64,000 bases of DNA, from the sequence record MG983840.1; one strand, given 5' to 3'. Below are positions 5,409 to 51,950 of this stretch, piece by piece. The DNA is from Escherichia phage myPSH1131. The position numbers and the translations under genes are program-made. Numbering within the stretch: the stretch's first letter is position 1; the number at the start of each line of letters is the position of its first letter. Under the pieces are notes generated by a model that worked only from the letters and a program-made list of their open reading frames with translations, was not told where the DNA came from and searched no databases.

Positions 5409-8400
5409 ATGATCGTTTATAACAACCAAGCACCTAAGAATGTTAACAATGTAGGACAATTTGGAGCTACTGAGGGAACTATTGGTGCTTATAAATCAGC
5501 AGCTGAATATGCAGCAGACTCTAAATATTGGGCATTGTTGTCCCAAACTAAATACTCCTCAGTAGAGGAGATTTTGGCTGAAGTAGAACGTCTGTATGCT
5601 CAAGGTCATCTACTGGAAGAAGACATTAAACAACTCAAGAGTGACTTTGAGTCACAAGAACAAGTGCTCTTAGGTTTGATTCAATCCACAGGAACTGCAA
5701 TTGACAACACCAATGCAGCAACTGAGCTTTCAAAAGAGGCAACTCAAAACGTTCTAGCACAACTTGACATTATCTCTAACATGACAGTTCAAACAACGCT
5801 TCTTCCTCCGGGAAGCCTAGCTACGGGGTCTTATGATAATGCAACAGGTGTCTTTGCTTTTGGTATTCCAGAAGGTAAACCGGGGCGTGATGGTACTGAC
5901 GGAACAATCGGTGATATTGGAAGCGTTCCTGTTGGTACCCCTGTTGTTGATGACTATGGTTTCTATGTAGATAAAGATGATGGTGGTTTATACCGAGCTG
6001 ACATGTCAGATATTGCCAACTTGATTCCATCTGTTCGATCTGTTTCAATCAATGGCGGCGCTGAACAAACAGGTTCAGTGGTTTTTGATTCTGTCTCCAC
6101 ATTCAATGGACGTAAGGGTGCTGTAGTTCCTGCTACTGGAGACTACACAGCTGCTCAAGTGGGAGCTTTTAGTGTAACTAATAACCTATCCGAAATAACC
6201 GACACAAGTGCAGCTATTACAAATATTGGACTCGCTGAGCATGGGATTGGTAGCCCTACCTTAACCAAAGTGAAGGCTATGGACTGGCAAACATTTAATT
6301 TTGTCAATGGAGGTAACTATTCAGTATTAATGTCGAATATTACAAATGCCCCTGCTGAGATAAATTATCCTGCCAATTATGGGTTATATCTTGAAGTCAT
6401 TGGCGTAGTTACAGGAGGAGGTGAGGTACGAGTGGTGCCAGGGACAAACAATAATAACTACTACTCAGTTTTCTCTGTAAGCTGGACTGGAGGAGTTGGT
6501 TCCCGAGTATTTACAGTACGAGAAGAGCTGTCTTCCGCTCGCCCTGTGACTATCTCTCAGGGTGGCACAGGGGCAACTACTGCAAGTGCTGCACGTACTA
6601 AACTTGGTTTAGGTTTGGTTTCCACTGAATCAATTGTACCTATTACCAAAGGTGGTACAGGAGCTACTTCATCAGAGAATGCTCGACTAGCTCTAGTTGC
6701 AGCTAAGAGTGGTGATAACTCTGATATCACCTCGATGACCAACAAGGTTACTTTCACACAATCTCCAGTAATTCCTGATGCTGTAGATGATAATGACGCG
6801 GTTGCTTTGAGACAGTTGCATACAAGTGAAGCAGATTTGCTGGCAAGGCTGAAAAGTAGTAATGCAGGTGAAGGTGCATCCCTTATTACCTTTGAAAATG
6901 GTAATTCTGTTGAGAGTCTTTCCAGTAAAGATGGGGCTAAAAACATTGGCAGTGGTGAGAGAAGTTTGCTTGTCCGTAACAACGACATTAAGCATTCAGG
7001 AGATTTCCCTACCTTACAAGCTGCGGTAAATGCATCGTTACCAAAAAACGACTTAATTGTTTCCCCCGGTGAATACAGTGAAGCGATTACTATTGGTAGT
7101 ACACAGTTAAAGGGTGTTGGTGGAGCCACGGTACTGAAAGCTCCGTCAAACTTTACAGACACTATTCAGGTTAAGGCATCTACGCCTCATTGGCAATTCC
7201 GCCATAGTGGTGGTTTTGCTATAGATGGTTCTGGGACAACCGGGGCTGTAGGTATTAGTTTTGACCCGACCGACCAATATGCTGGTCGTCACAACTTTAG
7301 TGACGTATACATCCATAACATTAACAAGGCCATTCAGAAACCTTCCGGGAATATAGGTAATACATGGAAAGGCATTGGCGTGCAAGGTTGTGACTGGGGT
7401 TACTGGGCACAGTCTGCTTCTGAGATGCACTTAGGCTCTGACACCCTTCAGAACATGCACTTTGATGGTATTAGCACTTACTGTGTTTACTTGAACGCTA
7501 CAACAGGAGAAGCGCCTGGTACATTCGGAGGTGGTGTAGGCGGCTGGTGGATTAAAGATAGTATTATGGAAGCCTCTGGCGGTGGTGGTATTTACCTCAA
7601 GAACAAGGATGGTGACTGCCCTACTGCCCCATGTGGTGTATCCAATGTATGGATGGAAGCTATCGCTACTACTCCAGCTATTAATGTAGATGGTGTATCT
7701 CAGAAGCCTCGTGTCCTTAAACTTATTGATACCAGTATCTTCTTTGCAGAGTACACATACCTTAATAACGTAGAGCTTCAGAACTCCAACCTTGTTACTT
7801 ATGGCTGCCGAGTAGATAATTCAGATGGCCACATGGATATCTCTGTAGATGCCAACAGCAGTTTTGTGGCTGATCAATTGTACCTGAATGGTAGCTCCGG
7901 CAAAGATGTAATGGTACGTTCTGTAGCGGCTCAGACAGGCAAGATTGGGCAAAGCTGGTCACCTAATATGAGTATGCGTGGATACCTGCCGGAAGGATAC
8001 ATCTATCGTGTACCTGGTAATAAGCTGGTAGCTAAACCCTTCGATGGAGGTACTGCTGAATTTAGTGGTACGGCAAGCAGCACTGGGAGTTTGCAGCCAC
8101 AAGGCCAGTTATCTCAGAGCTGCATGTACTTCGAAATCCCTGGTGCTGCTGAGTATGAGCTTACTGGTGCTGCATTTCAGATAACTTCCGGTAACTGGTA
8201 TGTATGGGGCATTAGCACTGAACTGGTACAGGGAACCCCTACAAACTTCCGCATCGGTGGAGATATCAATGTAGGTGAAGTATTTACTAAGGGGGGCCAG
8301 TGGGTGAGTACCTTTGGTGTAGCTCAGGCTAGTGCTTCCGGTTCAGTGAACCTGCGCCTAAGTACAGCCGGTACAGGCGGAGTAGTCCTACGCCTCGCTG

Positions 8401-37900: not shown

Positions 37901-39745
37901 TTAGTGCGTATGCATCCAGTTAAGTCCAATCTGACAATCAGAGGCCAGAGGACATTCCATATTCAAATACTCACCAGCCTTCTTAACACAAAGCTCGGTG
38001 TGCTCTTTGAGTTTCTGTACATCGTTACGATTAACTGAGAACTGGCCCTCGTCGTGCATATCAATTACCTTAGCACAACGAACTCCATCCTTCTCAATCC
38101 ACTTGTTAAGGAACATCATAGCGTATTTCATAACAACAGCACCAGCACATTGCAGGAGAGTGTTAAGTGCTTTATGAACCATAACTTTACCAGTGGCATC
38201 TCGTCTCATTGTAATCTTACGACCATCAACACCAATCAAGTATCCTTGAGCAGCTTTCTCTGTCATACGATCAATGAGGATTGCAATACATGGGTTCTCT
38301 GCCAAGAAACGTGCTCGCATCACTGAACCTTCGTCAGCCCCACCACCTACAATTGAGCCAAGCTTAGCGTCGCCAGCACCGTAGTTGAATGCATAGATAA
38401 ACGTTTTAGCATTGTCACGAGTAGGAAGACCAGCAAGTTTCTGGTTGTGGGAGTGGATATCACCTTCAAGGAGAATATCACGATACATAATAGCAGAAGC
38501 TAAACCACGTTCTGCCAGAGCTTTCTTAGCTGGGTTGTTCTCTTCGATTGCCTCAGCAAGCATATCCCTACACTCTTTAATGAGGTAGTGAGCTAGCATA
38601 CGAAGTTCAAGTCCAGAACCATCATACCCTAAGAATACTTCTTTGCCAGCGGGTATGTAATATTTGTAAGCACCTATAGGTTTGTCTTTCTTCCCCGGCT
38701 TACCTTTCTCGTAAATTACGTTAGTACCTTTTCGTATATAACAACCATCAGGAACAACGTTAGTAATAACGAAAGGATGAGAATGATCACTGTCTGAGTT
38801 ATAGTCAGACTCAAACAAACTGCGGCACTCGTGACCAAACAAACCACGGGAGGGAATATTAACCACGATACGATGTTTGAATCGAAAAGTCGGCGTAGCG
38901 CAGCTGTTAGCTTCTGCCGAAAGTTTACCATCTTCGCGCTCCTTTGCTATGAGTCCACTGATAAGACCTAGCCTGTGAGCCGCTACAACGCGTCTCTTAA
39001 GCAAACTTCCGACACTCCCTAGCTCACCCCCTAACCCTTCTTCAAGGGTCTCCTCGAGGTTTGTAGGAGCTGTAGGCCACTTGTTTGATGTGGCTAGTGC
39101 TTTCTTAATCTCATCAAACGTTACAGGATTACGGCGATTAGGGTTTAATCCCAAACCAAATACGTAAGCCTTCATATAATTCTTAGTTTTAAACCTGAAA
39201 TGCTTTTCTAAGAACTTCTTAATATCAGCGTCAACCATCTCGGCTGTCTGCTTCTGCTTAGCATTGCCTCGCATCCAAGCAGTATACCATGCTTGGTACG
39301 TTCCATACTTTCTCATATCTTTCTTGATTTCGAAAGTATTCCAAGGCTTCTTAGATACGTTAAACTCTGGAGGAAGAAATCCCTCATCCATAAGAGCTTC
39401 TTTAACTCGTGCATCTTTCGATGGGTCAAAGTCTACGTATTCGACACAGGTGAAAGCTCCACCAATGTCTTCCCTCTTCAGCCCAACCCTATCACAATAG
39501 GCTTGAGGCCACTTCTGTAAAGCTCCAGACTTCTTAAACGGCTTCATATAAGTAGAGCCATCTAATCTCATCTTAGGTAAGAGAGGAATCAGTTCTTTGT
39601 CAATATTAACAATAATCTCTTTAAGGAGGTGAACATACCACCGAGCATTTCTTCGGTTGAAACTCACTCCGTGCTTTGCTTGCTTAGAGATTATATCAGC
39701 GACAGTCATCTCTGTCAAAAATGGAAGAGCGTCCGGGTTGCTCAC
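37901..39745 (-). CDS. DNA polymerase, family A, polymerase domain only
   Basis: Motif A LGYDGSGLELRMLAHY, motif B RDNAKTFIYAFNYGAG, motif C HDEGQF. No 3'-5' exonuclease motifs in this ORF. Confidence 0.85.
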   Translation of the reverse strand: MSNPDALPFLTEMTVADIISKQAKHGVSFNRRNARWYVHLLKEIIVNIDKELIPLLPKMRLDGSTYMKPFKKSGALQKWPQAYCDRVGLKREDIGGAFTCVEYVDFDPSKDARVKEALMDEGFLPPEFNVSKKPWNTFEIKKDMRKYGTYQAWYTAWMRGNAKQKQTAEMVDADIKKFLEKHFRFKTKNYMKAYVFGLGLNPNRRNPVTFDEIKKALATSNKWPTAPTNLEETLEEGLGGELGSVGSLLKRRVVAAHRLGLISGLIAKEREDGKLSAEANSCATPTFRFKHRIVVNIPSRGLFGHECRSLFESDYNSDSDHSHPFVITNVVPDGCYIRKGTNVIYEKGKPGKKDKPIGAYKYYIPAGKEVFLGYDGSGLELRMLAHYLIKECRDMLAEAIEENNPAKKALAERGLASAIMYRDILLEGDIHSHNQKLAGLPTRDNAKTFIYAFNYGAGDAKLGSIVGGGADEGSVMRARFLAENPCIAILIDRMTEKAAQGYLIGVDGRKITMRRDATGKVMVHKALNTLLQCAGAVVMKYAMMFLNKWIEKDGVRCAKVIDMHDEGQFSVNRNDVQKLKEHTELCVKKAGEYLNMECPLASDCQIGLNWMHTH

Positions 39746-39761
39746 TTTATACTCCTTTAAA

Positions 39762-40184
39762 TTATTGGTAAAGTAAATCTGTAAATGCTTGGTTATCTTC
39801 TACTACATTCAGCATGGTTGCTTCATCACTATAAGCCCTAACTGTCCCGTTGACAACTGTCCAAGGAGGGGGCGGAGGTGGTGTATGTGTAGCTCTGGCT
39901 TCACGAGGTTGTTCTCGTACCAGATGAGCCACAACCCTCTGATTAGCAACTTCTTCTCTTTCTCTAATAGCTCTCTGAATGTAGGCCAGCTTCATACCCC
40001 AAGCTTCTTCAAACTCTTGAGGGTGTTTATCACTGATAACCACATACTGACGTTCAGGAATACCAGAGCGAATCTCTGATAATAATTCATGGAACAAATC
40101 TAGTTCATGTTCAGTGAGATTCATTTCGATATCATCCCACTTGAGAACTAAGAAACGGTTTTGGTGTCTAGCTGGTAATGGCAT
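39762..40184 (-). CDS. hypothetical protein
   Basis: 140 aa ORF with a poly-proline stretch (PPPPPPW). Confidence 0.3.
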   Translation of the reverse strand: MPLPARHQNRFLVLKWDDIEMNLTEHELDLFHELLSEIRSGIPERQYVVISDKHPQEFEEAWGMKLAYIQRAIREREEVANQRVVAHLVREQPREARATHTPPPPPPWTVVNGTVRAYSDEATMLNVVEDNQAFTDLLYQ

Positions 40185-40347
40185 CCTACTCCACCTCTAC
40201 TTCAATGTAAGTTCTCTCACCGACGTCATCTTTTAAGACCCATGACTTGGCATCTTCTTCAGACTTAAAAGCTTTCACAACGCTGTAACCACCTTCCCAT
40301 TCATCACCGAACCAGCGCTGTCCTACGTAAATGTATTCTTTCATTAC

Positions 40348-40632
40348 TCAACCTTTTGGGAATGGCATCAAAAATTCCATAGCAGATTTAATCTCATTAT
40401 TGATTCGTGAATCACGATAAGAGATAAACTTACCTTTGCTATCACGTAACATCACATGGGTTCTGGCTGTTTTGTGAGGGAGCAATGTGATACTAGTTGG
40501 AATAGCATCAATCCCTACAGCGTATTTGTCAATAGTCTTACTTTCAGCCAACAGATAAGACCAAGTACGCGGTTTCTGCTCCGGGCGGTTAGGGTATGTG
40601 TCCCGAATTTGAACCATAGCTAACTTATTCAT
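40348..40632 (-). CDS. hypothetical protein, tandem paralog 1
   Basis: Shares a C-terminal GKFISY...PFPKG pattern with the adjacent ORF. Confidence 0.35.
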   Translation of the reverse strand: MNKLAMVQIRDTYPNRPEQKPRTWSYLLAESKTIDKYAVGIDAIPTSITLLPHKTARTHVMLRDSKGKFISYRDSRINNEIKSAMEFLMPFPKG

Positions 40633-40633
40633 A

Positions 40634-40888
40634 TTAAACTCCTTTAGGGAATGGGATGAGATTTTCTACTGCAACACGGAAAGATTTTTCTACGTTCTTA
40701 TTCTTATAAGAGATAAATTTTCCATCAGCTCCTCGAAGGAGTACGTTAGTGCGAGCTGTATTTGGGTTTTGTTGAATCATAGAACGAATGATGTTCTCTG
40801 AACCTCTATGCTTATTGGTGAATTTCCAACTGATAGTTTTACCGGTACGAGTTACATCAATGATATTTACGATTTTTACAATAGACAT
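40634..40888 (-). CDS. hypothetical protein, tandem paralog 2
   Basis: Ends ...GKFISYKNKNVEKSFRVAVENLIPFPKGV. Confidence 0.35.
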   Translation of the reverse strand: MSIVKIVNIIDVTRTGKTISWKFTNKHRGSENIIRSMIQQNPNTARTNVLLRGADGKFISYKNKNVEKSFRVAVENLIPFPKGV

Positions 40889-40957
40889 ATTTATTACCTA
40901 AGAAGTTTAATTTGGTTTATATAAAAGAAAAGGCCACCTGATTAGGCAGCCTTTGTT

Positions 40958-41251
40958 CTAGAGACGAAGCCAAGTTTGATAGTCAGCTTCAGTGTAATGG
41001 TTGTTTCGAGAGTTGTTTTTCATTTCCTTGAGAGTAGCTCTCAGGTCAATGTTATGCTCTCTCCTTGTTCTATTCGGGTCTGTATCTTCTAATAGATGGG
41101 AGTGATCACTACAAGAGTAGTGCTTATAGTGGTCCCTGTATCCTCTACTTGGAGAATACTTGGTCATTAAAGTTGCAACTCTTTTTACACCCTCTGCTTT
41201 ACAGAATTTACAATAAGTGTGAATTGTACATCTTTTTGTTTCTGCTGACAC
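40958..41251 (-). CDS. Cys/His-rich hypothetical protein
   Basis: CTIHTYCKFCK ... HYKHYSCSDHSH suggests metal binding. Confidence 0.3.
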   Translation of the reverse strand: MSAETKRCTIHTYCKFCKAEGVKRVATLMTKYSPSRGYRDHYKHYSCSDHSHLLEDTDPNRTRREHNIDLRATLKEMKNNSRNNHYTEADYQTWLRL

Positions 41252-41261
41252 TATAACCTCT

Positions 41262-41576
41262 TTATGAGCTTAAAGCTCCTTTGCGTGCTCCAGCTGCTTT
41301 TCCAGCTCGATCACCACTTTTGCCGCCGTTTGAACGGTTTGAGCTGACTGATTCAACACGTAAGTTGCTTGACGCATTAGAGCCTCCAGACTTGACAGCT
41401 CGTTTGTGTCCAACGTCTTTACCTCTGACAGCAGCTTTTCCATCGCGCTTTTCAACGATGCGACGTGCACGGTGGCGCTGAGCATCTCCGCTCTTGCTCC
41501 CAATTCCCGTTTCACCGCGCTTGATCGCAGTCCTTCTTTCTTGTGCATAATCTCTCTTTCCTACATGATCTGCCAT
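41262..41576 (-). CDS. small basic protein
   Basis: SD TAAGGAG and a TAATGTATA motif directly upstream on the minus strand. Confidence 0.4.
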   Translation of the reverse strand: MADHVGKRDYAQERRTAIKRGETGIGSKSGDAQRHRARRIVEKRDGKAAVRGKDVGHKRAVKSGGSNASSNLRVESVSSNRSNGGKSGDRAGKAAGARKGALSS

Positions 41577-41613
41577 TTAAAACTCCTTAATATATCAGTG
41601 TACACTAAGGAGT

Positions 41614-41622
41614 ATACATTAT
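41614..41622 (-). promoter_or_regulatory. TAATGTATA promoter motif (minus strand)
   Basis: Plus strand TATACATTA, about 38 nt upstream of the start at 41576. Confidence 0.45.
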
Positions 41623-41746
41623 AAGTTACTGTTAAGCTTTCTTTTCCATTGCTTTAACAATCGCCTTACAGAACCAGAACGAACAATGTCATCCGATTCT
41701 CCGTCTACAATCGCTTTCTTTCCAATTCTATAAGTGTGAACCCAAA

Positions 41747-41947
41747 TCATTCTTCTTCCTCATATTCCCAATTTCTTTCATAATATCCAGAGTTGTAGTT
41801 TAGGGCGCATTTCTCGGCCTCTTCTATGTCGTCTGTGTTTAGGATATTTACCCATCCTCCGACTTCATCAAAACCTTCTTCTACTTCGTTAAACCATACA
41901 CTATACTTTTTCATCGAGAGGTTCTTCCCCAATCTTTTACATAGCAT
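41747..41947 (-). CDS. small acidic hypothetical protein
   Basis: 66 aa; paralog of 36562..36723. Confidence 0.3.
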   Translation of the reverse strand: MLCKRLGKNLSMKKYSVWFNEVEEGFDEVGGWVNILNTDDIEEAEKCALNYNSGYYERNWEYEEEE

Positions 41948-42087
41948 CGACCGTTAACCCACTTTGTCTCTGACTTAAACTCTTGAGACAACCTCACTTC
42001 ACAGTCTTCTCTACTGGCATCTCCTCCGATATCAATCAGATACAGGAATAGAGCTATACCTAAAGCCCAAAGAATTATCTTCTTCAT
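41911..42087 (-). CDS. small secreted/membrane protein
   Basis: From the internal start MKKIILWALGIALFLYLIDIGG (signal or TM segment). Confidence 0.25.
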   Translation of the reverse strand: MKKIILWALGIALFLYLIDIGGDASREDCEVRLSQEFKSETKWVNGRCYVKDWGRTSR

Positions 42088-42139
42088 CGAATCACCAAAG
42101 GAGCAATTCCGCATTCTCTAAAAGTGGCAGGCATATAAT

Positions 42140-42460
42140 CTACATCACCTTCAGATGATGTATGACCAGCTCTCTTCGAGGAAGCATTCTAATCCAGATA
42201 TCGACGAAGAAACCTAACTGTCGACACACCTCATCCTTCTGGACACCATTACAAAAGATGATAGGAATCTGCAAACACTCTGCATCAATCTTAATGTCAT
42301 GATTATCGTACCCATTAGGCTCTGCAAAGCGATAAGTTACAAAGCGTACATCATAGCCCTTTTCTTGCATTAATGCCACTACAGAGCGCCACAGCTTTTT
42401 ATCTGAGGTGTAAGTGTCATCATAATCTAAACCAATATTCATGTCAAATCCTTTAGACAA
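42140..42460 (-). pseudogene. HAD-family phosphatase copy 2, C-terminally divergent or truncated
   Basis: Matches 36725..37135 through VDIWI, then diverges. Confidence 0.4.
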
Positions 42461-42674
42461 GAAAAGCCGCCCTAAGGCAGCTTCTTATTTAACTGTTCAC
42501 TTTAGCTTCAAGTGTTTCGTTTTCAATACTCAAGTCAATCACTACACCAGTAAGCTCAACGACTGCTTGGCGAAGGGCATCTTTACCCATAGAGTGTACT
42601 TGAGATAAGAAGAAAGCTTTACCTTCTTCAGTGGATAGGGTTTCTTTTAATTCAGAAGCAGTCATTGATATTCC

Positions 42675-42869
42675 TTATGTTATGTTATAAATTCGCATGA
42701 TTGTACCACCATTGGCTTCAATAGCAGCAACCATTTGGTTTCGTTCTTCATCCGTGTAAACTAACACACTTCTAAACTCGCCTGTTGCATCAGTATAAAG
42801 GATGTTATATTTTGGAGGCGGTTTACGGTAAATACCTTCCATCACTCTTTCTCCTCTCGTTCTTTCCAC
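42675..42869 (-). CDS. hypothetical protein (paralog of 37350..37544)
   Basis: 64 aa, about 80% identical. Confidence 0.3.
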   Translation of the reverse strand: MERTRGERVMEGIYRKPPPKYNILYTDATGEFRSVLVYTDEERNQMVAAIEANGGTIMRIYNIT

Positions 42870-43025
42870 AGTTCGGCTAGCTCTAGATAGAACTCAGCCT
42901 CATCAGGACGACCTTGTTCATTACAGATGGCGCTCTGACGATAACACCAGTCCGATGGCATCTCTTCCACTTCAATCTCCTTGTTACGAACCAATCAATA
43001 AGAATAGTTCATTCGTCTTATTTAT

Positions 43026-43220
43026 TCACTCTACCAATGCAGGTACTTCCATCCTTTTAACTGTGAATGTCTTGTTTGGAAACTTTCGAACTAGTTCTGC
43101 TGCTTTGGTTATTGCTAAGTTTTCTGTCTCAAAGATACACAGTTGACCATTTAATGCTACGAGAGTGGAGCCACCGCTGAAGACGGCCCAAGATTCATAA
43201 TAACCACGAACACTCATCAC
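43026..43220 (-). CDS. hypothetical protein (paralog of 37701..37892)
   Basis: 64 aa, about 90% identical. Confidence 0.3.
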   Translation of the reverse strand: MMSVRGYYESWAVFSGGSTLVALNGQLCIFETENLAITKAAELVRKFPNKTFTVKRMEVPALVE

Positions 43221-43585
43221 TCAACCTCAATATTATATAGAGTTTTCAGTGTATCTTTAATCCAAGTAATTCGTTTTTGGTTCTTGTGGTGTGATCTGTT
43301 ATCTCTATCTCTGAAATATTGGTCACAGCCAAAAGGGTATGTATGGTCCGAGAATTTATCTTGGTTAAACATGTTCTTCATGTCATCCACGTCTAGATGT
43401 TTTGTGAAATAATAATACTTCTTATAACAGCGGAAGTTGAAGCATAGTCCGTGATCTTCGTTAAACCAAGGAGGACACTCTTCTGTTTGAGTTATATGAT
43501 AATACTGGAGGAGGAAATCTTCCATCCCTCTCTCCTTGAATAAACACCTAAGTGTTCTATAGATTATATTAGTTTCTTTCATCAC
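43217..43585 (-). CDS. hypothetical protein, present only in the second copy of the block
   Basis: 122 aa ORF lying between the small paralog and the polymerase fragment. Confidence 0.3.
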   Translation of the reverse strand: MMKETNIIYRTLRCLFKERGMEDFLLQYYHITQTEECPPWFNEDHGLCFNFRCYKKYYYFTKHLDVDDMKNMFNQDKFSDHTYPFGCDQYFRDRDNRSHHKNQKRITWIKDTLKTLYNIEVE

Positions 43586-43590
43586 TCACC

Positions 43591-43956
43591 TTAGTGTGTG
43601 TGCATCCAGTTAAGTCCAATCTGACAATCAGAAGCCAGAGGGCATTCCATATTCAAATACTCACCAGCCTTCTTAACACAAAGCTCGGTGTGCTCTTTGA
43701 GTTTCTGTACATCATTACGGTTCACTGAGAATTGACCTTCATCGTGCATATCAATTACCTTAGCACAACGAACCTTATCTTTCTCAATCCATTTGTTAAG
43801 TAACATCATAGCATATTTCATAACAACAGCACCAGCACATTGCAGGAGTGTGTTAAGGGCTTTATGAACCATAACTTTACCAGTGGCATCTCGTCTCATT
43901 GTAATCTTACGACCATCAACACCAATCAAGTATCCCTGAGCAGCCTTTTCTGTCAT
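43591..43956 (-). pseudogene. DNA polymerase C-terminal fragment (second copy)
   Basis: 121 aa nearly identical to the last 121 aa of 37901..39745, including HDEGQF. Confidence 0.55.
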
Positions 43957-44038
43957 ACGATCAATGAGGGGTAATTACGATGCAGTGAACGCCCCATTTC
44001 AGGGTCATCACGCCTAGTGGAACCTGAAGAACCTGAAG

Positions 44039-44566
44039 TTATCCCTGAAGAACCTTCAACAGATATCCCGTGTTCTGGAACTCATCAACAATAACAATAG
44101 CATCATTGAAAGAACGACCACGGAGATATTCCAGAGGTACAAACTCAATGTTACCATTTCCGATTTGGCATTCATAGAATCCCTTACCATATCGCTGAGT
44201 AATAACATCAATGATAGGCATCAGGTAAGGTTCAAACTTCTCACGCATTCCTCCCGGAAGTAACCCAAGAGAGTTGCCCATGCCGACAGAAGGGCGACTC
44301 AGAATGATCTTCTGAATCTTACCGCTCTTCAGTGCATCAATAACTGTGGAAGTGATTACAAAGGTCTTACCACAGCCCGCAGGAGCGTCTGTGAACACAA
44401 CTTGTTTAGTCTTAATAGCATTGAGTAGCTCAGACTGAAACTGGTTCTGAGGGACTACAGGCTTTGCTAAAACCACCTCTTCATACTCTCGCTTACCTTT
44501 ACGAGTAACAAGTGCTTCCCGACGAAGGTCTTTCCGTGATTCTTTCCGTGATTGACGACGACTCAT
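44039..44566 (-). CDS. phoH: PhoH-like ATPase, possibly C-terminally truncated
   Basis: Walker A DAPAGCGKTFV and Walker B IVIVDEFQN. The ORF ends shortly after Walker B, next to an apparent junction. Confidence 0.65.
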   Translation of the reverse strand: MSRRQSRKESRKDLRREALVTRKGKREYEEVVLAKPVVPQNQFQSELLNAIKTKQVVFTDAPAGCGKTFVITSTVIDALKSGKIQKIILSRPSVGMGNSLGLLPGGMREKFEPYLMPIIDVITQRYGKGFYECQIGNGNIEFVPLEYLRGRSFNDAIVIVDEFQNTGYLLKVLQG

Positions 44567-44748
44567 TTACGCTCTCCAATTTCTTCGTAATGACACTCAG
44601 TAGTTAAGCAGTCTTTACAGATTGCTGTATAAACCCTGACGTTAGTAAATCGTTTGTTCTTCCCTTTGGTTGGAGAGCCTTTGGCAAGCTCTCTGATAAC
44701 CTTGTTACTTAAATGAAGGTTTGTTCCTTCACATTTAGAGCACTTCAT
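44563..44748 (-). CDS. zinc-ribbon protein
   Basis: CSKCEG ... CKDC four-cysteine pattern. Confidence 0.3.
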   Translation of the reverse strand: MKCSKCEGTNLHLSNKVIRELAKGSPTKGKNKRFTNVRVYTAICKDCLTTECHYEEIGERK

Positions 44749-45064
44749 GGTTCATATCTTTATGAATCCTGTAAACAGCTGTCGCCATACAAGCAACAGC
44801 CTCGTTGTGTGGGAGGTGCATCCCTGTAGAACCATCCCAATCTTTGAACTCATTGTCAAAGACTCCGGTAGGCTCTGGATATAGAGCTTGCAGCTCCACT
44901 AGATCATTAGCAACTTGTTGCCATTTATCATCAGACCAGATAGGGTCATCCAACCAGTAATACAAATAGGAATGGATGATCAATTGCCTTCTATGCCGAT
45001 TGATTACTTCAGCGGGACTTATCTCACTTCCATTTGAAGTCCTAAATGTATTACTGTCAATCAT
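44735..45064 (-). CDS. hypothetical protein
   Basis: 109 aa ORF in a tightly packed gene series. Confidence 0.3.
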   Translation of the reverse strand: MIDSNTFRTSNGSEISPAEVINRHRRQLIIHSYLYYWLDDPIWSDDKWQQVANDLVELQALYPEPTGVFDNEFKDWDGSTGMHLPHNEAVACMATAVYRIHKDMNHEVL

Positions 45065-45315
45065 TTCACAACCTTAAATTTGAATGTTGTTGGGTGATAA
45101 TAATGCAACCTATTGATAGTGTGCTTTGTTTCGAGATATATCCTGCAAGAGTGGCACATGACATGGGTCAGACCAGTTACAGGGTTAGGTTTGAAGTTGG
45201 CGACAGGCTTCTCTTTCTTACAGAAGCTACAGACTTTCTTTTCCATCTTTTCTCCAGTGGTCAACGAATTGCTGAAACACCTTATGGTCGAATGTGAAAC
45301 CACGAGCAATCCCAC
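45061..45315 (-). CDS. hypothetical protein with Cys pairs
   Basis: CSFCKK ... CHSCR. Confidence 0.25.
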   Translation of the reverse strand: MGLLVVSHSTIRCFSNSLTTGEKMEKKVCSFCKKEKPVANFKPNPVTGLTHVMCHSCRIYLETKHTINRLHYYHPTTFKFKVVK

Positions 45316-45476
45316 ACTCTACGAAAGTAGAAGGCATATAGTCTACATCATCTTTAGACGTATGACCATAAACTTGAATAAGCTTTTTAATCTTATCCTT
45401 CTCTCTTCGAGGAAGCATCCTAAATGCCTCCTGAATATCTGTAATATGTTTGATTTTCATCAGAAAGCCTCTGATA

Positions 45477-45962
45477 TTAACTCTCCAAAGTTTTCTTCAG
45501 AGCTGCCCATGAGATTGGGTAGAGCTTAGCCATCTCTTCATCTACGGATTTAGCAAACACTCGAACTTCATATTGAGCGTGAGATGAGAGTCGCTGACGA
45601 CACAACTCAAACCAGCCATACAAAGAACCAGTCCACACCCACTCAGTGATCATCCCCTGAGGAAGAACAAATCGAGCTTGCTCTGGTGCAATAAATTCAA
45701 TCAACTTGTCATATGTTGCTAGAGAAGCTTCATATGCATCGTTAATCAACATTAATGCTTCAGCTCGTTCTCCGTCGATGAGTTGAATCCCTGAACCTGC
45801 ATGGAGGTCCGAAGGTCTCGCAAAAATCTCTTTAGGGATGAAGACTTCAACTGCTCCATCTTTATACCGCCGGGACATTTCGTTCCACGAGAATCCAACC
45901 TGATGCTTGCCCAGCTGTCTCGCAATTGCGATAGGTGCTTTGCATCGGAAACTGACTTGTAT
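45477..45962 (-). pseudogene. thyX: flavin-dependent thymidylate synthase ThyX, lacking N-terminus and start
   Basis: RFVLPQGMITEWVWTGSLYGWFELCRQRLSSHAQYEVR aligns with the ThyX core I recall from T. maritima. The frame is open upstream to 45962 with no start, and the RHR motif position reads GKHQ. Confidence 0.6.
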
Positions 45963-45972
45963 CTACTACCAA

Positions 45973-46182
45973 TCAGTAGTAAATTACTTTAGACATAAAA
46001 GAACCAGTGTTAGGGTCTTCATACCAGCGATGTATGTCAGCGCTTTTTACTATTGTGCCCAGAGTCTTCAACTGTTTCTTAGCAATACGAGCCTCTTTGC
46101 GAGTGTCAAACAATTTGATGTTATCTTTTCTCATGTGTTGCTCAAGATCCCAAACAACATGAATAGCCCACATCTTTTTCAT
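45973..46182 (-). CDS. small protein, tandem paralog family (C-terminal KV-YY)
   Basis: 69 aa ending SKVIYY. Confidence 0.35.
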   Translation of the reverse strand: MKKMWAIHVVWDLEQHMRKDNIKLFDTRKEARIAKKQLKTLGTIVKSADIHRWYEDPNTGSFMSKVIYY

Positions 46183-46391
46183 TAGTAATGTACCTTTCCG
46201 CTGATATAAACACGACCAGAAGAATACTCCTTGGCCTTATGGATGCTGATACTATTAACCACGTCACCAGTAAGCATAGTCTTTTTAAAATCTCGAGCTT
46301 GTTGACGAGTAGGGAGTGCAGTCATAGTCATACCACCTGATGCCCACTTAATCTTCGCTAACCAGAATTTTCTCATAGTGATTGGTCTCAT
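46182..46391 (-). CDS. small protein, tandem paralog
   Basis: 69 aa ending GKVHY. Confidence 0.35.
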   Translation of the reverse strand: MRPITMRKFWLAKIKWASGGMTMTALPTRQQARDFKKTMLTGDVVNSISIHKAKEYSSGRVYISGKVHY

Positions 46392-46588
46392 TAGTAATAA
46401 ACCTTACTGTTGACACAAAAAGCACCTTCACTATTCACGATAGCTTTTCCTAATGTAACCTTGTTAAGTCTAAAAGTAGACTTGTATTGGTTTTTGACCC
46501 TACGTGCGTGCTCTCGAGTATTAACAAAATCTACAGCTACTAACTCTCCAGTCGTGTTATCATGTACACGAACAATCCACTTTTTCAT
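46391..46588 (-). CDS. small protein, tandem paralog
   Basis: 65 aa ending SKVYY. Confidence 0.35.
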   Translation of the reverse strand: MKKWIVRVHDNTTGELVAVDFVNTREHARRVKNQYKSTFRLNKVTLGKAIVNSEGAFCVNSKVYY

Positions 46589-46791
46589 TTTACTAAACCC
46601 TTCATGTAGTCATAAAGATCATTAGAAGCTTTACCCCATTCAAGGTGCTTCTTATCCATATAACGCTTACAGACTTCTTTATTACCTTCATCACAAGTAT
46701 CAAATCGATGACATGCCCGACCAAATACCATTGCTTTTAACTGAGCATCAGTAGTTAAATATTTAAGTTCTTGAAACTCTTCTTTATTCAT
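46585..46791 (-). CDS. hypothetical protein
   Basis: 68 aa ORF. Confidence 0.3.
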   Translation of the reverse strand: MNKEEFQELKYLTTDAQLKAMVFGRACHRFDTCDEGNKEVCKRYMDKKHLEWGKASNDLYDYMKGLVK

Positions 46792-47325
46792 TTACACACC
46801 CTTAGATGCAACTACACCTTCAGAGTTATTATAACGACCCTTCACTGCATAGGAGTGTTCCCCTGCATGAGAGTGCTCAAACATGACCATCTGACCAACA
46901 CGCATACCAGCACGAACTCGTAAGCTATGATGCTTGGTTACGTTATGGAATTCAAATGTCAGCTTACTACTATTAAATCCTGCATCTGCCCAACCGGCGT
47001 GAAGGTGGTTCAAACCACAACGAGCCATAGACGAACGCAGAACAAACAGACTTGAGATGTTATCTGGAAGATTAAACTCCTCCATAGAGTGAGCCAAGAA
47101 GAACTGACCCGGAGTGATAACCAAACCCTCTTCAGGAATCTTTACTTCCTTCCACTGAAGATTCTCTTTCGCATCAATATCAACGATGCCATCAGCCTGT
47201 TCTTCAACAAGGATAGTATCGCCAATACGAATATCCACACTAGCAGCGTTAACATACTTATGCTCCGCATCCAGATAGCCATTGTCAATTACATCATGCA
47301 GTTCAACACTTCCTAGTAAACTCAT
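46792..47325 (-). CDS. dcd: dCTP deaminase
   Basis: SVDIRIGD and LFVLRSSMARCGLNHLHAGWADAGFNSSKLTFEFHN align along the length of E. coli Dcd as I recall it. Confidence 0.75.
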   Translation of the reverse strand: MSLLGSVELHDVIDNGYLDAEHKYVNAASVDIRIGDTILVEEQADGIVDIDAKENLQWKEVKIPEEGLVITPGQFFLAHSMEEFNLPDNISSLFVLRSSMARCGLNHLHAGWADAGFNSSKLTFEFHNVTKHHSLRVRAGMRVGQMVMFEHSHAGEHSYAVKGRYNNSEGVVASKGV

Positions 47326-47540
47326 TCTTGCTCCTTAGTTATTTGTTTCCATCTTCAACTGTTTCTTAGCAATACGAGCCTCTTTGCGAGTGTCAAACAA
47401 ACAATTTGATGTATATCTTTTCTCATGTTGCTCAAGATCCCAAACAACATGAAATTAACAGCTGAGTGTGGTGCATCAATAACACCATCATCAATTAATT
47501 TATGTAACTCTGGACTTCCTAGTAAACTCATTCTTATTCC

Positions 47541-48914
47541 TTAGTTATTTGTTTCCATGTCAAAAGAGATTCCACGACCCGCTTCATCGGCAAACCGAAC
47601 TGTACGGGTTTGAGGTTCTAATACTTCAGGGTTGTTAGCAATAAAGCGATCAGCGAGACTGCGGCTGACAGCCTCAGCGAGTTCCTCATGAGAAGGAGTA
47701 TCAAGATCGGAGAGACTGCCTACCACATCTTGGGCCACACCTTCATCAGTCCACACAGCCCTAACAGGTGCGTTGATATCACCAACAGCAAAACCCTGAC
47801 CAGAGAACTGACGTGCGCTAACAGTTAAGCCATTTGGTCGACCACGAGAGGGTCTAGCCATCCATCGCTCCATAGAATCACTTGTAACACCAAGAGCTTC
47901 TTCAAAAGATGTTCTACGAGTAGTAGGTCTTATTCTTCGTGACTCTTGTGCTCGACGCATTGCAGGGGCTACAAACACCCCTTCAATTGCATTGTGTCGG
48001 TTAGGTTCTTCTTCCCGACCAAGTAGGTCGCCACCCGTGTTGGTTGTTAAGTTTGTCAACCCTTCAGACCAATACGCACTAATCTGACTAGATCCATGAA
48101 CACTTGACATTAACTGGATTTCTTCATAAGGGATTCCAAATAATCGACTCATGTCACGATTAACACAATACTGAGCACTTGTTGTATCCTCAATAAGAGC
48201 AACCTGACCTCGTTCGTTGACCAGATGATTAATCGGTTGAGGTGTGGGAAGATATCGAGTTTGGGCCATGTATTGATGTGCAGCTGCTGGAGAGGAAAAT
48301 CTCAACACTTGCGAGTTAGGCCACTTCTTGTGAACATACCTGATTTCACGATTAGAAACAACCACTGGACAAGGAGCGGTCATAGCCAAATATCCGTGAG
48401 AGGTCATGAATAAGTTGTCAAGAGTCATCGCACCACGGCACATCATAGGAAAATTATCCAATACCTCTTCAATAGAAGTAGGATAATTAAACATGAATTG
48501 GATACGAACCCCATCCCACTGAAACTCAATAATATCAGTGAATGTTAATTGAGAACTCCCAGCATAGGATTCGTTTGTAGCTTCAGCAAGAAGGGATGCA
48601 TATTCAATATCTTGTGACTCTAACCATTCCTTCACATTACTTTCAATCTCTCTTCCAAGAGCTTGCCAACGATCAGTTGGGACGAAAGTATTTTGAGTTC
48701 TTGGTGTTTGTCCTCTGACAATAAAGATATCAATGTCATGTGGAGCTGTGTTATTAAGCACAGCATCACGAACAGCCCCACCAGTAATGATGGGACAGAT
48801 ACCGTCTGGAACTAAATTGTTGTTAATCAACTGTTCAATGAAGTGACGACCAACAGTGATATCAGGTTGTTGAGCAACCTTATCTTCAATTTGGTTAATC
48901 GGGATAACAATCAT
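47541..48914 (-). CDS. Pol-beta-superfamily nucleotidyltransferase, CCA-adding / poly(A)-polymerase-like
   Basis: Head-domain motif ITGGAVRDAVLNN...HDIDIF. Start moved to MIVIPINQ, 1 nt after the upstream ORF stop. Confidence 0.55.
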   Translation of the reverse strand: MIVIPINQIEDKVAQQPDITVGRHFIEQLINNNLVPDGICPIITGGAVRDAVLNNTAPHDIDIFIVRGQTPRTQNTFVPTDRWQALGREIESNVKEWLESQDIEYASLLAEATNESYAGSSQLTFTDIIEFQWDGVRIQFMFNYPTSIEEVLDNFPMMCRGAMTLDNLFMTSHGYLAMTAPCPVVVSNREIRYVHKKWPNSQVLRFSSPAAAHQYMAQTRYLPTPQPINHLVNERGQVALIEDTTSAQYCVNRDMSRLFGIPYEEIQLMSSVHGSSQISAYWSEGLTNLTTNTGGDLLGREEEPNRHNAIEGVFVAPAMRRAQESRRIRPTTRRTSFEEALGVTSDSMERWMARPSRGRPNGLTVSARQFSGQGFAVGDINAPVRAVWTDEGVAQDVVGSLSDLDTPSHEELAEAVSRSLADRFIANNPEVLEPQTRTVRFADEAGRGISFDMETNN

Positions 48915-48915
48915 T

Positions 48916-49410
48916 TTACATTTTCCAATATAATGAAGGTGGGTCGTAAGGGTCAAATCCCGTGAGTTCACACAAGAAAAGATAAACCTTAACAGTTAAG
49001 TTAACGTCCTGTTCACAATAAGTAAACATATCTTCAGTGAAAGCATCCCATGCTTCCTCTTGCTCACCATAATCGCCCTTAAGTTCTCCTAAGAACTCAC
49101 CCCACTGCTTCAAACCATGACCCCTTGGGCCACGTCTAGGGTCGCCTTTCGGATACTCAGGACTGTCACCAATACGGTCAGGTTTAAGATATCGACTAAG
49201 ACATAAAGTGTCGAAGACGTTAAAACGATAGTTAATCAGATTGGGATACATCTTCTTCAGAGCACAAAGGTCGAAGTCAATAATATTGTGACCCACCAGT
49301 ACATCTGCTTCTGTAAGTTTACGAATCCCATCTTCAATTTGGTGAGGCCGATAGCCCCACCTTTCACCAGTTTCAACATCGAAGATATAAATACACCATA
49401 CTAAAGTGCA
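48916..49410 (-). pseudogene. family A DNA polymerase 3'-5' exonuclease domain, N-terminus disrupted
   Basis: Exo motifs [14 protein letters not shown] and YCEQDV. A second Exo-I-like stretch FAFDIES lies in another frame, and there is no clean start codon. Confidence 0.55.
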
Positions 49411-49450
49411 TTACTCTCGATATCGAATGCAAACACTTTCTTCTTTTTCT

Positions 49451-50791
49451 TTACCACGGTGAAGCTCCATCTGCTTGGTTGACGAGAGAAGCTGCATCCT
49501 CTCCGTTAGTTAAAACGAATGGATTATCTTCATCAACTTCAAAGTCTTCCCTTTCTACAAGTCTCCCGGTTTCACTGATATACTTAGTATAGCAGACACC
49601 TGTCTGACCGTAGTTACGTTCTTTCAGTAATCGAATGACTGAGAGGTTCTTAGCTAAGCCATCAGCTTGCTTGTCACGCTCAAAGCCAATGATACACTGA
49701 CACCAACGCATAAGAGAACGAGAGCCAGTGAACTGCACTTCACGTACCTGTCCACCTTCTTCATGAGGAGCACCACCTGCCGGAGCATTAAGGTGAGATA
49801 GCACAAAAGCGGTAAAGTAAAGTCTAATTCTTTACACATACCAGCAAGCACCAGAGCGGTAATGTTATCAAGGATGATGAAACTACTTACACTGGTTTTC
49901 AACTACCCAGAAACGGATACACTGTTTAATGTCTTCCCATTCATTCTGTCCGAAGTTGTCATACAAGAAGAATTTGTCTGCATAACGAAGTGCTTCATTA
50001 CGCAAATCCTCCTCATCATATTCAACATCAGGTCGGTGGAAAGGAATTGATGCCGACTTACCAGCAATGTTCTTAACAGACATGCCTACCTTCTCTTCCA
50101 AGAAGAAGCCACCTCCATTAAAACCATGTTCTAAGCACAGATGAGCAACCAGCTCATGAGCAATGAGTGTTTTACCACTCCCTACTCCACCACCAATTGC
50201 TACCACCTCTCCCCATCGAATACCGAAGGTCATCTCATTCAGAGTCTTCCACGGATATGGGATACCCCACTCCGCTTTCTTCAGAGCATCATCAAGGCAA
50301 TCAAAGATTGTTACAGCACCAGCAGGAGATTCCCGCTTTGCTGAGTACTTGAGAATGTTGAATAACTCTTGACCACGACCAGACAGAAGCATGTCATTCG
50401 CATCCTTAATCTCTTTCTCCACACCGTTGTATGGGAAAGTTCCTTTAGGAATACGAGCAAACTTAACATGAGGGAATAAAGAACGACCTTTTGTTAAAGC
50501 TATCTCACCTGCATCATCGTTGTCCATGCAGAGCACAACCTCCTCAAAACCATTTACGAAGTCTCGATTACGAGACAACACAGAAGAGATTGAACCTGCA
50601 CCGAACGGTAAAGAAACACATGCTGGTTTGATGTTTGTTGCATTTGTAAAAGCTGTAAGGACATGGAAACCTGACATACAGGATAGCGGGTCTTCAAAAA
50701 TGAAAGAGATGCTCGGGAAGTAGGAACCACCGTAACGGACAACAGAGATCGAAGTTATCTTCAGTCCAACCTTCGCCAATGAGATTAGCAA
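49451..50791 (-). pseudogene. primase-helicase (T7 gp4-like), split over three reading frames
   Basis: TOPRIM CMDNDDAG and Walker A GGGVGSGKT in one frame, Walker B FIILDNITALV in a second, H3/H4 region APHEEGGQVREVQFTGSRSL...LKERNYGQTG in a third. Confidence 0.7.
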
Positions 50792-50896
50792 TAGTCCGTA
50801 AATTTTTAAACGGGTGACCTACGTAAATTACTTCTGACATTTAAAATACCTTTAGTCTTTCATGATGTTTTCAATGTAAGACCCGTTGCGTACGAC

Positions 50897-51076
50897 TTAC
50901 AGGGTGCAGTGCGTAGTGCCCTTTTCGAACACTTCGTAATTCCCACAACGGTTACAACTTCCCCACTCCTCACCAGTCTCTTCGTTACGGAAGAGAATCA
51001 TGTGGTTGTGGGTTTTATCACGACCATGAGAGATACATTCCTTACAACCTGTGTCTCCCAAAATGATCTTTGACAT
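50897..51076 (-). pseudogene. primase zinc-binding domain as a detached 59-aa ORF
   Basis: MSKIILGDTGCKECISHG...GSCNRCGNY (CxxC...CxxC), SD AAGGAGGA. Separated from the TOPRIM region by a GGCT-gene-like fragment. Confidence 0.5.
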
Positions 51077-51313
51077 GCTCTTCCTCCTTGGAATCCTTGA
51101 GCTTAGTAGAACGAACGAATTTCATCCCACACTTGTTCCTGTTCTTTCCTATAAAAAGAAAGTTGGGTCTTGAACATCTCCACTGATGATTCAAAGTTTT
51201 TGGTTTGTGCAGCTTCAACGAAACGTTCATGTCGGTTGATTTTGCACCGTAGCATTAAATACTTGGCTTCAAGTCTCCGAAGAGCTTACTCAATCTTTCA
51301 TGTTTCATAAAAC

Positions 51314-51688
51314 CTACCAGTCTTGTTCTTCGTCGATATGATAAATCCAAGCGATAACAGTTTCACCTGAGTCCATCTTAACAGCAATCTGAGTACGCTG
51401 ATAGAAGCTGTCTTCAGGGCTACGTTTGTTGTAACCTTCCAGACGGTCATACGGACCTTCCAGACCTGCTTTGTCAGTAGCAAACACTTCTACACGAACA
51501 GGCTTGTTGTTATTGCTGTGTGCGAGAGAGATGCTCGGGAAGTAGGAACCACCGTAACGGAACAGATCAAAGTTGTCTTCAGTCCAACCTTCACCAATTG
51601 ACTTAGCACCAGCTCGGTCATTAACTAAATAGTTAGCTTGACCACGACGAAGAGAACCATAAGTTGCTACGTAAATTACTTCTGACAT
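51314..51688 (-). CDS. gamma-glutamyl cyclotransferase-like (GGCT/AIG2 fold) protein
   Basis: N-terminal VIYVATYGSLRRGQAN fits the GGCT/AIG2 signature. Confidence 0.5.
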   Translation of the reverse strand: MSEVIYVATYGSLRRGQANYLVNDRAGAKSIGEGWTEDNFDLFRYGGSYFPSISLAHSNNNKPVRVEVFATDKAGLEGPYDRLEGYNKRSPEDSFYQRTQIAVKMDSGETVIAWIYHIDEEQDW

Positions 51689-51716
51689 TATCTATACCTT
51701 TGTTGGTTTGTTTAGT

Positions 51717-51941
51717 TTATCCGACGTTAGCATTTAAGCGAAGTTCCTGAATCTTAGTGTCAATTGAGGGCCATAAGGAAGAACACGCACCATTGTTAGA
51801 TACCTTTAAGTTTAAGAATTTCGTTAGAACGCGATCTCCAATACGAACATCAATGCTGGAGGAATTAACAGCTGAGTGTGGTGCATCAATAACACCATCA
51901 TCAATTAATTTATGTAACTCTGGACTTCCTAGTAAACTCAT
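51717..51941 (-). pseudogene. dCTP deaminase N-terminal fragment (second copy)
   Basis: 74 aa matching the first ~40 aa of 46792..47325, then divergent. Confidence 0.45.
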
Positions 51942-51950
51942 TCTTATTCC

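Follow-up and report, generated by a model that had tools for sequence, protein, structure and literature searches.

The stretch of DNA considered here, hereafter the window, comprises 64,000 nucleotides (nt) of Escherichia phage myPSH1131 (record MG983840.1), and the gene under study encodes a nucleotidyltransferase (NTase) at 47541..48914 on the minus strand (457 amino acids (aa) plus stop, ATG at 48914, stop codon at 47541-47543). The protein, which begins with MIVIPINQ, matches PHROG 12715 ("nucleotidyltransferase") from end to end (positions 1-457 of 457, E 3.9e-266) and is therefore not a chance open reading frame (ORF). By megablast, the region is best placed in the phiEco32-like podophages (Kuravirus, Gordonclarkvirinae), with 96% nt identity to phage SU10 and a matching gene order; at the protein level, identity reaches 93-95% with SGF2, SU10 and PH444 and spans 84-95% over about 69 isolates. 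The SU10 orthologue, gp74, is annotated in RefSeq as a nucleotidyltransferase with a class II CCA-adding enzyme NTase domain and was detected by one peptide in SU10 proteomics (PMC4281155). The gene is thus a single-copy core "nucleotidyltransferase" gene of phiEco32-like phages. Taken as a whole, our observations are probably best explained by a single-copy NTase made of head and neck domains and coupled to replication, the second copy seen in the window being an artefact.

The protein consists of a folded catalytic domain, predicted to be a class II-like head followed by a neck-like region (codons 1-285, 48060..48914, minus strand), and a disordered tail that accounts for the remaining codons. 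The GGAVRD...DID motif that a sequence-only reading of this DNA had recognised is found in the head as G45-G46-A-V-R49-D50 ... D60-I-D62 (motif A, 48729..48782, minus strand) and holds two catalytic carboxylates. A third acidic residue, D127 (nt 48532-48534, minus strand), is always D or E among 52 family members, and the Pol-beta metal-binding triad D60, D62 and D127 is complete. Twelve positions are invariant in the 52 members (G45, G46, R49, D50, D60, D62, F64, I128, Q139, P156, Y193 and K197), and the catalytic residues remain so down to 22% identity. The invariant Y193 and K197 belong to a family-specific motif, R-[DE]-x-x-Y-x-x-K-K in the family alignment and S-N-R-E-I-R-Y193-V-H-K-K197-W-P in this protein (48318..48356, minus strand), which a relaxed hhalign alignment places where class II enzymes have motif D (EDxxR) and the phage anti-defence protein Gad2 has S-x-x-R-x-x-K-Y. 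The family is narrowly distributed. An exhaustive hmmsearch of 1.84 billion representative proteins recovered only 32 clusters and, among 50,697 phage genomes, the family is confined to 97 Escherichia and Shigella Gordonclarkvirinae. Between the three genera of this subfamily, the NTases are 28-39% identical over the first ~262 residues while their C-terminal halves are unalignable, and distant metagenomic relatives (274-320 aa) match profile positions 1 to ~210. Scans with PADLOC and NCBIfam returned no match for the NTase, nor did a phmmer search of the protein against PDB sequences.

The fold was addressed with an AlphaFold2 (AF2) model based on a 52-sequence multiple sequence alignment, in which the predicted local distance difference test score (pLDDT) is mostly >90 over residues 1-285; a shallow alignment restricted to Kuravirus gave a pLDDT of 32 and was discarded. 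With this model, the 36 best Foldseek matches in the PDB were all class II enzymes with a probability of 1.0. The structural scores were 10.6, 10.4 and 10.4 for the CCA-adding enzymes 1miv, 3h37 and 1ou5, 10.4 for the A-adding enzyme 4wby, 9.1 for the CC-adding enzyme 3wfo and 8.8 for the plant CCA enzyme 9kma, against 8.2 for TENT5, at most 7.3 for CD-NTases, 6.5 for MenT1 and at most 5.9 for aminoglycoside/lincosamide NTases. The head fold of the NTase hence resembles class II enzymes more than other Pol-beta NTases. The part that aligns structurally to class II enzymes is limited to 166-182 residues, which correspond to the head and a portion of the neck. The sequence-only reading had named two outcomes that would speak against it, a different Pol-beta family as best match and the lack of a tRNA-binding body domain; the former was not seen, whereas the latter was.

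Sequence profiles lead to a similar picture. The Pfam head domain PF01743 (PolyA_pol) scores 22.2 bits on copy 1 and 18.8 bits on copy 2, below its gathering score of 23, and covers residues 43-130 only; it is detected at E <= 0.1 in 29 of the 52 members, the best value being 1.9e-4 (22.2 bits, member 1), with no member shown to attain the cut-off. None of the 52 members matches a Pfam family of the class II body/tail or RNA-binding regions (PF12627, PF12626, PF13735 and others), whereas PF01743, PF12627 and PF12626 are all present in genuine PcnB controls, which were enterobacterial only (the search being seeded with Cca and PcnB) and served solely as a control of domain architecture. When the family profile was run against all PDB sequences with hmmsearch, only the 27 residues of motif A aligned to CCA-adding enzymes (6ibp, E 0.005), and hhalign comparisons of the family with E. 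coli Cca or PcnB singly, or with their pair, likewise aligned motif A only, with 5-20% probability. In class II enzymes, motif B (RRD) reads the ribose 2'-OH and motif D (EDxxR) acts as the amino-acid template for CTP and ATP. Neither is present in the NTase family alignment, where the positions assigned by sequence alignment, without structural superposition, read x-F-P-x-x-C (motif B) and R-[DE]-x-x-Y-x-x-K-K (motif D). The assignment to a CCA-adding-like family thus holds for the catalytic head, with its motif A and its exclusively class II best Foldseek matches, but not for the remainder of the enzyme, as the tRNA-binding body/tail, RRD and EDxxR are lacking and PolyA_pol stays below threshold. 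The model indicates that the NTase is a head-and-neck-only derivative of class II enzymes and no canonical CCA-adding enzyme; that it is an active class II-derived NTase is probable.

The genomic context associates this enzyme with DNA replication. On the transcribed strand of SU10, the order is primase/helicase (gp76), DNA polymerase exonuclease subunit (gp75), NTase (gp74) and dCTP deaminase (gp73), each occurring once. The helicase-exonuclease-NTase-dCTP deaminase order is found in SU10, KBNP1711 and EK010, in which the exonuclease gene stops at or very near the NTase start, and is kept across Kuravirus, Nieuwekanaalvirus and Suseptimavirus. A related 80-kb Logan contig displays the same gene arrangement, and an 86-kb metagenomic contig has the same four-gene order with an NTase that is only 27% identical. 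In two short contigs carrying other distant relatives, an upstream ORF stops right before the NTase start, and one of these ORFs gives a faint exonuclease-type Pfam match. The position of the NTase in the three genera is therefore fixed, as befits a core gene, and not that of a variable accessory anti-defence locus; the BASEL paper also describes the NTase locus as fully syntenic across Gordonclarkvirinae (PMC11990801).

In the window, the gene that precedes the NTase is the 3' part of the DNA polymerase proofreading exonuclease subunit gene (48916..49296, minus strand), a homologue of the N-terminal domain of T7 gp5 (PHROGs 38876, 403 and 17) whose SU10 orthologue matches residues 3-178 of T7 DNA polymerase (gp5) with an E-value of 1.5e-12. 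As the sequence-only reading had stated, the ATG lies 1 nt past the upstream stop: the TAA (48916-48918) is followed by one base and then by the ATG at 48914. The coupling to a polymerase exonuclease-domain ORF holds as regards the identity of the exonuclease and the 1-nt gap, but the ORF of the window is only a frameshifted fragment of 126 aa, compared with 185 aa in SU10, as 16 nt are deleted with respect to SU10 (window 49386-49402, SU10 50448) near the Exo I motif. PHROG 38876 (111 aa) was itself apparently built from truncated exonuclease versions. By its arrangement, the NTase gene is translationally coupled (TAA-N-ATG) to a T7-gp5-like exonuclease gene inside the replication operon. An alternative identity for the upstream exonuclease, that of an RNase D-like partner trimming tRNA 3' ends, was rejected since it is a homologue of the T7 DNA polymerase exonuclease domain. 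Downstream, the normal neighbour of the NTase is the dCTP deaminase gene, intact in the window at 46792..47325 (minus strand) and identified by SU10 synteny and by the Pfam DCD domain in related contigs. The T7-like family A DNA polymerase of these phages is split: in SU10, about 8.6 kb separate the upstream exonuclease gene (49962-50519) from the polymerase-domain gene (39483-41327), an interval that contains the NTase, dCTP deaminase, thymidylate synthase and PhoH genes along with many small ones.

The NTase had been described as present twice in this DNA at ~90% identity, and a second ORF does exist at 51951..53264 (minus strand, 437 aa). The two copies share 93.8% nt identity over ungapped columns, or 89.7% when 60 gap columns are counted, and 93% protein identity, with 38 synonymous and 30 non-synonymous codon differences; the start context TGGAAAATGTAAAATGATT, which joins the exonuclease stop and the NTase ATG, is identical at both. 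What was not borne out is a biological duplication. Copy 2 is an allelic variant of the ES17 / myPSH2311 / SU10 type with a natural 20-aa deletion in the tail; its region (52058-53385) is 97.7% identical to SU10 at the nt level and has 100% identical blocks with ES17 and myPSH2311. The 437-aa alleles are the sole copy in many isolates, 457/453-aa alleles are likewise single in others, and the NTase homologue is single-copy in 97 of 97 deposited relatives. Moreover, a block of 208 nt spanning the NTase 3' end and the dCTP deaminase 5' end (47453..47660, no strand assigned) is 100% identical to 51863-52070, whereas the copies diverge by 6-10% outside it; this block is likely a collapse or switch point between co-assembled strains. 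The flanks are also abnormal. Immediately downstream of copy 1, a spurious 58-aa stub (47355..47531, minus strand), made of a duplicated dCTP deaminase 5' end fused to an unrelated small-gene fragment (SU10 47320-47418), marks an assembly junction, and a second dCTP deaminase stub of the same kind lies downstream of copy 2. Upstream of copy 2, only the last ~40 codons (~120 nt) of the exonuclease gene remain (53265..53385, minus strand), ending at a junction to unrelated sequence, and the primase/helicase gene of the window is broken into pieces. Neither of the junctions flanking the two copies was found in any deposited phage genome, and an exact-match search for the copy-2 upstream junction in IMG/VR and JGI metagenome contigs did not find it.

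The disorder extends to the whole window. Mapped on SU10, its 64,000 nt show 11 back-jumps, 10.4 kb of the SU10 span being covered two to four times while 12.2 kb are left uncovered, including a segment (SU10 6018-7818) that contains the complete scaffold gene and the major capsid gene's 5' end. Blocks that adjoin each other match different isolates at 100% identity (ES17; PGN6866/MN03; myPSH2311). Because of these back-jumps, the truncated essential genes, the blocks matching different isolates and the single copy in all relatives, we attribute the double occurrence to an assembly or mosaic artefact: the window in all likelihood combines two or more Kuravirus strains in a chimeric or mosaic sequence and, with the same high confidence, copy 2 is the same locus from another strain, an allele and no paralogue. 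A real segmental duplication of about 4.4 kb including the NTase is, by comparison, very improbable. It would agree with the spacing of 4350-4410 nt between two ORFs that are intact and oriented alike, and with a published account of segmental amplification of anti-defence loci in other phages (PMC13096335), but it would have to accommodate a 208-nt block of full identity between copies that otherwise differ by 6-10%, the correspondence of each copy to a different natural allele, truncated gene stubs in the flanks, scrambling across the window with loss of capsid and scaffold sequence, and the absence of a second copy from every relative. Further repeated blocks occur in the window at about 27.1-35.6 kb, 36.5-43.9 kb, 53.8-57.9 kb (three copies) and 61.5-63.2 kb. 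Two other records are worth mentioning. In phage myPSH2311 (MG976803.1, 68.7 kb), the NTase, exonuclease and helicase genes are broken and a supernumerary dCTP-deaminase stub is present (39256-51720), at the same place as in the window, with which this phage has many 100%-identical blocks in common. This suggests that either their assembly problems or their sources are related. Phage PH444 (PP350014.1, "UNVERIFIED_ORG") has 114,913 bp, about 38 kb above any Kuravirus genome, and is collinear with SU10 over the 21 kb examined; given this collinearity and an NTase with no more than 95% identity, the window was judged not to be this record.

As to the function, the sequence-only reading favoured tRNA repair, i.e., a bona fide enzyme restoring tRNA 3' ends (CCA) that host nucleases have trimmed. 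Several features go along with this proposal: CCA-, A- and CC-adding enzymes come out as the closest matches in structure, the GGAVRD...DxD of motif A agrees almost perfectly with class II, and Kuraviruses have a tRNA gene. In addition, the catalytic cores of class II enzymes retain some activity without their C-terminal domains. We nonetheless hold it to be improbable, given the lack of body/tail, RRD and EDxxR, the sub-threshold Pfam score and the location of a core gene in the replication operon instead of a variable anti-defence region. The tRNA itself provides no need for such an enzyme. No tRNA gene is present in the 64,000-nt window, and the one found among related phages, the single tRNA-Arg(UCU) gene of SU10 (66656-66731, outside the window region), ends with ...GGGCGC-A-CCA. 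Since CCA is encoded in this gene and the host carries its own Cca, CCA addition is not needed for maturation of the phage tRNA, and the idea of a phage tRNA requiring it was rejected.

The C-terminal tail is unusual. It extends over codons 286-457 (47544..48059, minus strand), is Arg-rich and lysine-free, varies between strains by indels and finishes with a conserved end peptide (about aa 420-457). In the AF2 model, the pLDDT falls below 50 over residues 290-457, apart from a marginal helix at 409-427. The tail of copy 1 contains no Lys and 20 Arg in 172 aa, that of copy 2 (51954-52409, minus strand) is also lysine-free, and the tails past residue 285 in the 52 members total 0 Lys versus 613 Arg in 5698 residues. 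As a result, the whole copy 1 protein has 4 Lys in 457 aa (0.9%), compared with 4.7% in long ORFs of the window, and, among the SU10 proteins of 100 aa or more, the NTase is joint lowest in Lys. The GC content of the tail-coding DNA is higher than that of the core (48.6% versus 40.8%) in a genome that is AT-rich, but this does not account for a complete absence of Lys. In SU10, other unusually Lys-poor proteins (Lys 2.0-2.9%), most of them Arg-rich (R 7-9%), are encoded at 53644-54846, 57400-58503, 58500-59117, 59926-60897 and 41344-41757. They include ATP-grasp (RimK-like) and amidoligase proteins, as well as hypothetical proteins of the same peptide-ligase cluster (58500-59117, with only 4.9% R, and 59926-60897), while the hypothetical protein at 41344-41757 is unlinked to the cluster. 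The Lys-poverty common to the NTase and the peptide-ligase cluster might reflect a shared origin or a shared constraint.

An Arg-rich tail brings to mind poly(A) polymerases (PAP). The enzyme could tail host or phage RNAs, for instance to speed up host mRNA decay and recycle nucleotides, with the tail binding RNA as does the Arg-rich C-terminus of E. coli PAP I. This option also appears unlikely to us: the net charge of the tail is negative to neutral in most members, many distant family members have no tail at all, and no PAP-type RNA-binding domain is present.

A second comparison leads to phage counter-defence. Gad2 (~400 aa) is encoded by Bacillus phage SPbetaL7 and has an NTase domain predicted by AF2; deleting Gad2 leaves the phage susceptible to Gabija, and an anti-Gabija phenotype has been reported only for SPbetaL7 Gad2 and a Brevibacillus homologue (bioRxiv 10.1101/2023.05.01.538930); its mechanism was listed as unknown in a February 2026 review (PMC12904381). 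A precomputed match to Pfam PF26128, labelled "Gad2 (weak)", exists on most Kuravirus members, although our local Pfam scans of the NTase did not return PF26128 even at E <= 10, the local copy being probably older than the model. We compared families, using Gad2 (OQ921347.1, 109563-110765) and ten diverse relatives (11 sequences) and a two-sequence class II control profile (Cca/PcnB). The hhalign comparison of the NTase and Gad2 families gave 80.5% (E 1.3e-5), confident over 40 columns that correspond to motif A and the preceding helix, and a relaxed alignment over 176 columns paired IQxM with LQxI, FPxxC with FDFTI and SxRDxxYxxKK with SxxRxxKY. Against Cca/PcnB, the NTase family reached 25.6% and the Gad2 family 45.7%, the latter placing FDFTI on RRDFTIN (motif B) and PIxSxLRxxKY on EDPLRxLRxxRF (motif D). 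These values suggest that the NTase is closer to Gad2 than to class II enzymes, a tentative ranking because 11 Gad2 sequences and two class II sequences were compared. No Gad2 structure was found in the PDB by sequence. Gad2-like short NTase-domain proteins (168-212 aa) also occur in small dairy and Listeria phages, such as Streptococcus phage SW22 (25714-26220) and Listeria phage P35 (gp53); the SW22 gene sits between nuclease and SSB genes, a replication-module context. Escherichia phage 19-1-2, a candidate Kuravirus with a separate Gad2-like gene, was rejected, the scaffold being from Vequintavirinae.

A number of observations weigh against the interpretation of the NTase as a Gad2-related, class II-derived enzyme. 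Motifs B and D were placed by sequence alignment and not by residue-by-residue superposition, and the sequence profiles resemble class II enzymes and Gad2 only weakly, mostly through motif A. The BLASTP match between Gad2 and the NTase is marginal (E 0.003, motif A only), and the 199 phage records retrieved by tblastn with Gad2 do not include the Kuravirus NTase gene. Finally, Gad2 belongs to an accessory anti-defence locus, whereas the NTase is a core gene of the replication operon. By analogy, a Gad2-type role in counter-defence, which overlaps the other functional options, is possible, albeit doubtful. The counter-defence function envisaged in the sequence-only reading thus stays plausible by likeness to Gad2, but not through the tRNA-repair route, for which the tRNA-binding body is lacking, the tRNA encodes its own CCA and the host supplies Cca.

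The replication context invites one more functional hypothesis. Gordonclarkvirinae are remarkably resistant to restriction-modification (RM) and other tested defence systems, for which DNA modification has been speculated, and the locus with dCTP deaminase and NTase was pointed out in this respect (PMC11990801). A pathway of DNA modification or DNA-end protection involving the NTase and the replication genes would explain the RM resistance; it would fit the tight coupling to the polymerase exonuclease and helicase, the absence of the RRD motif that reads the ribose 2'-OH and the action on DNA ends of Gabija, against which Gad2 is directed (PMC12904381). Yet this pathway is, to our mind, also unlikely, and slightly less credible than the RNA-based options: RNA 3' ends are the substrate of all characterised class II-type enzymes, modified bases have no direct evidence in their favour, and the dCTP deaminase is explained by ordinary dTTP supply since these phages also encode a thymidylate synthase. 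A related and similarly speculative proposal, which we view with as much reserve as the RNA-based options, is a replisome-coupled Gad2-like NTase that would act on phage DNA ends, primers or a replication intermediate by modifying or capping them, possibly with deoxynucleoside triphosphates, as may be conceivable because the ribose-reading RRD motif is missing. Within this proposal, the lysine-free tail could be an adaptation that avoids self-modification or Lys-directed conjugation by the host or the phage. If true, such an enzyme would underlie the resistance of Gordonclarkvirinae to RM and to DNA-end-sensing defences such as Gabija.

Returning to the single-copy, replication-coupled head-and-neck NTase that we prefer, we infer its catalytic activity, substrate and role as follows. 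The enzyme would catalyse template-independent nucleotide transfer onto a nucleic-acid 3'-OH; its substrate would be recruited via the Arg-rich tail or replisome partners and not by recognition of the tRNA shape; and it may serve phage replication or counter-defence, as Gad2 does against Gabija.

The gene family was already catalogued, its RefSeq class II CCA-adding domain annotation was available and its conserved locus had been noted in the literature. What this work adds is the absence of the body/tail and of motifs B and D, the narrow distribution, the deep coupling to the exonuclease, the link to Gad2 and the lysine-free tail. A word of caution is also in order, as the duplicated CCA-like enzyme does not survive the recognition that the window mixes Kuravirus strains in scrambled form. 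The NTase is an annotated core gene of common coliphages that are used therapeutically and reported to be highly defence-resistant (PMC11990801). Its biochemistry could inform how Gad2-type NTases work and why these phages resist DNA-targeting defences, and the strictly lysine-free tail is an oddity that can easily be tested.

Compared with known systems, the NTase has in common with class II enzymes and PcnB (E. coli 3aql, B. stearothermophilus 1miv, A. aeolicus 4wby) the motif A GGxVRD...DxD. Unlike them, it has no body/tail, RRD or EDxxR and displays instead FPxxC, R-[DE]-x-x-Y-x-x-K-K and a disordered lysine-free tail. Stand-alone CCA head-domain proteins, such as that of S. pneumoniae (NP_344798.1, PDB 2la3) and the short ones of phages, have 137-215 aa and differ by the absence of the 150-285 region and of the tail. 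Among BFVD matches, PolyA_pol-head-like proteins of this size occur in unrelated phages (Aeromonas phiAS7 H6UK10, Providencia PS3, Dickeya Ninurta, Vibrio ICP1 ORF223 and others), which suggests a wider class of minimal phage NTases. On sequence grounds, Gad2 is tentatively the closest characterised phage relative of the NTase, membership of one family being undemonstrated. Both are phage proteins whose N-terminal part (~200 residues) resembles a class II NTase head/neck without body/tail, and both have the strand motif (L/I)Q-x-(M/I) and a C-containing motif B position. They also differ in that Gad2, unlike the NTase, keeps DFT at the motif B position and has a folded, Lys-rich C-terminal half.

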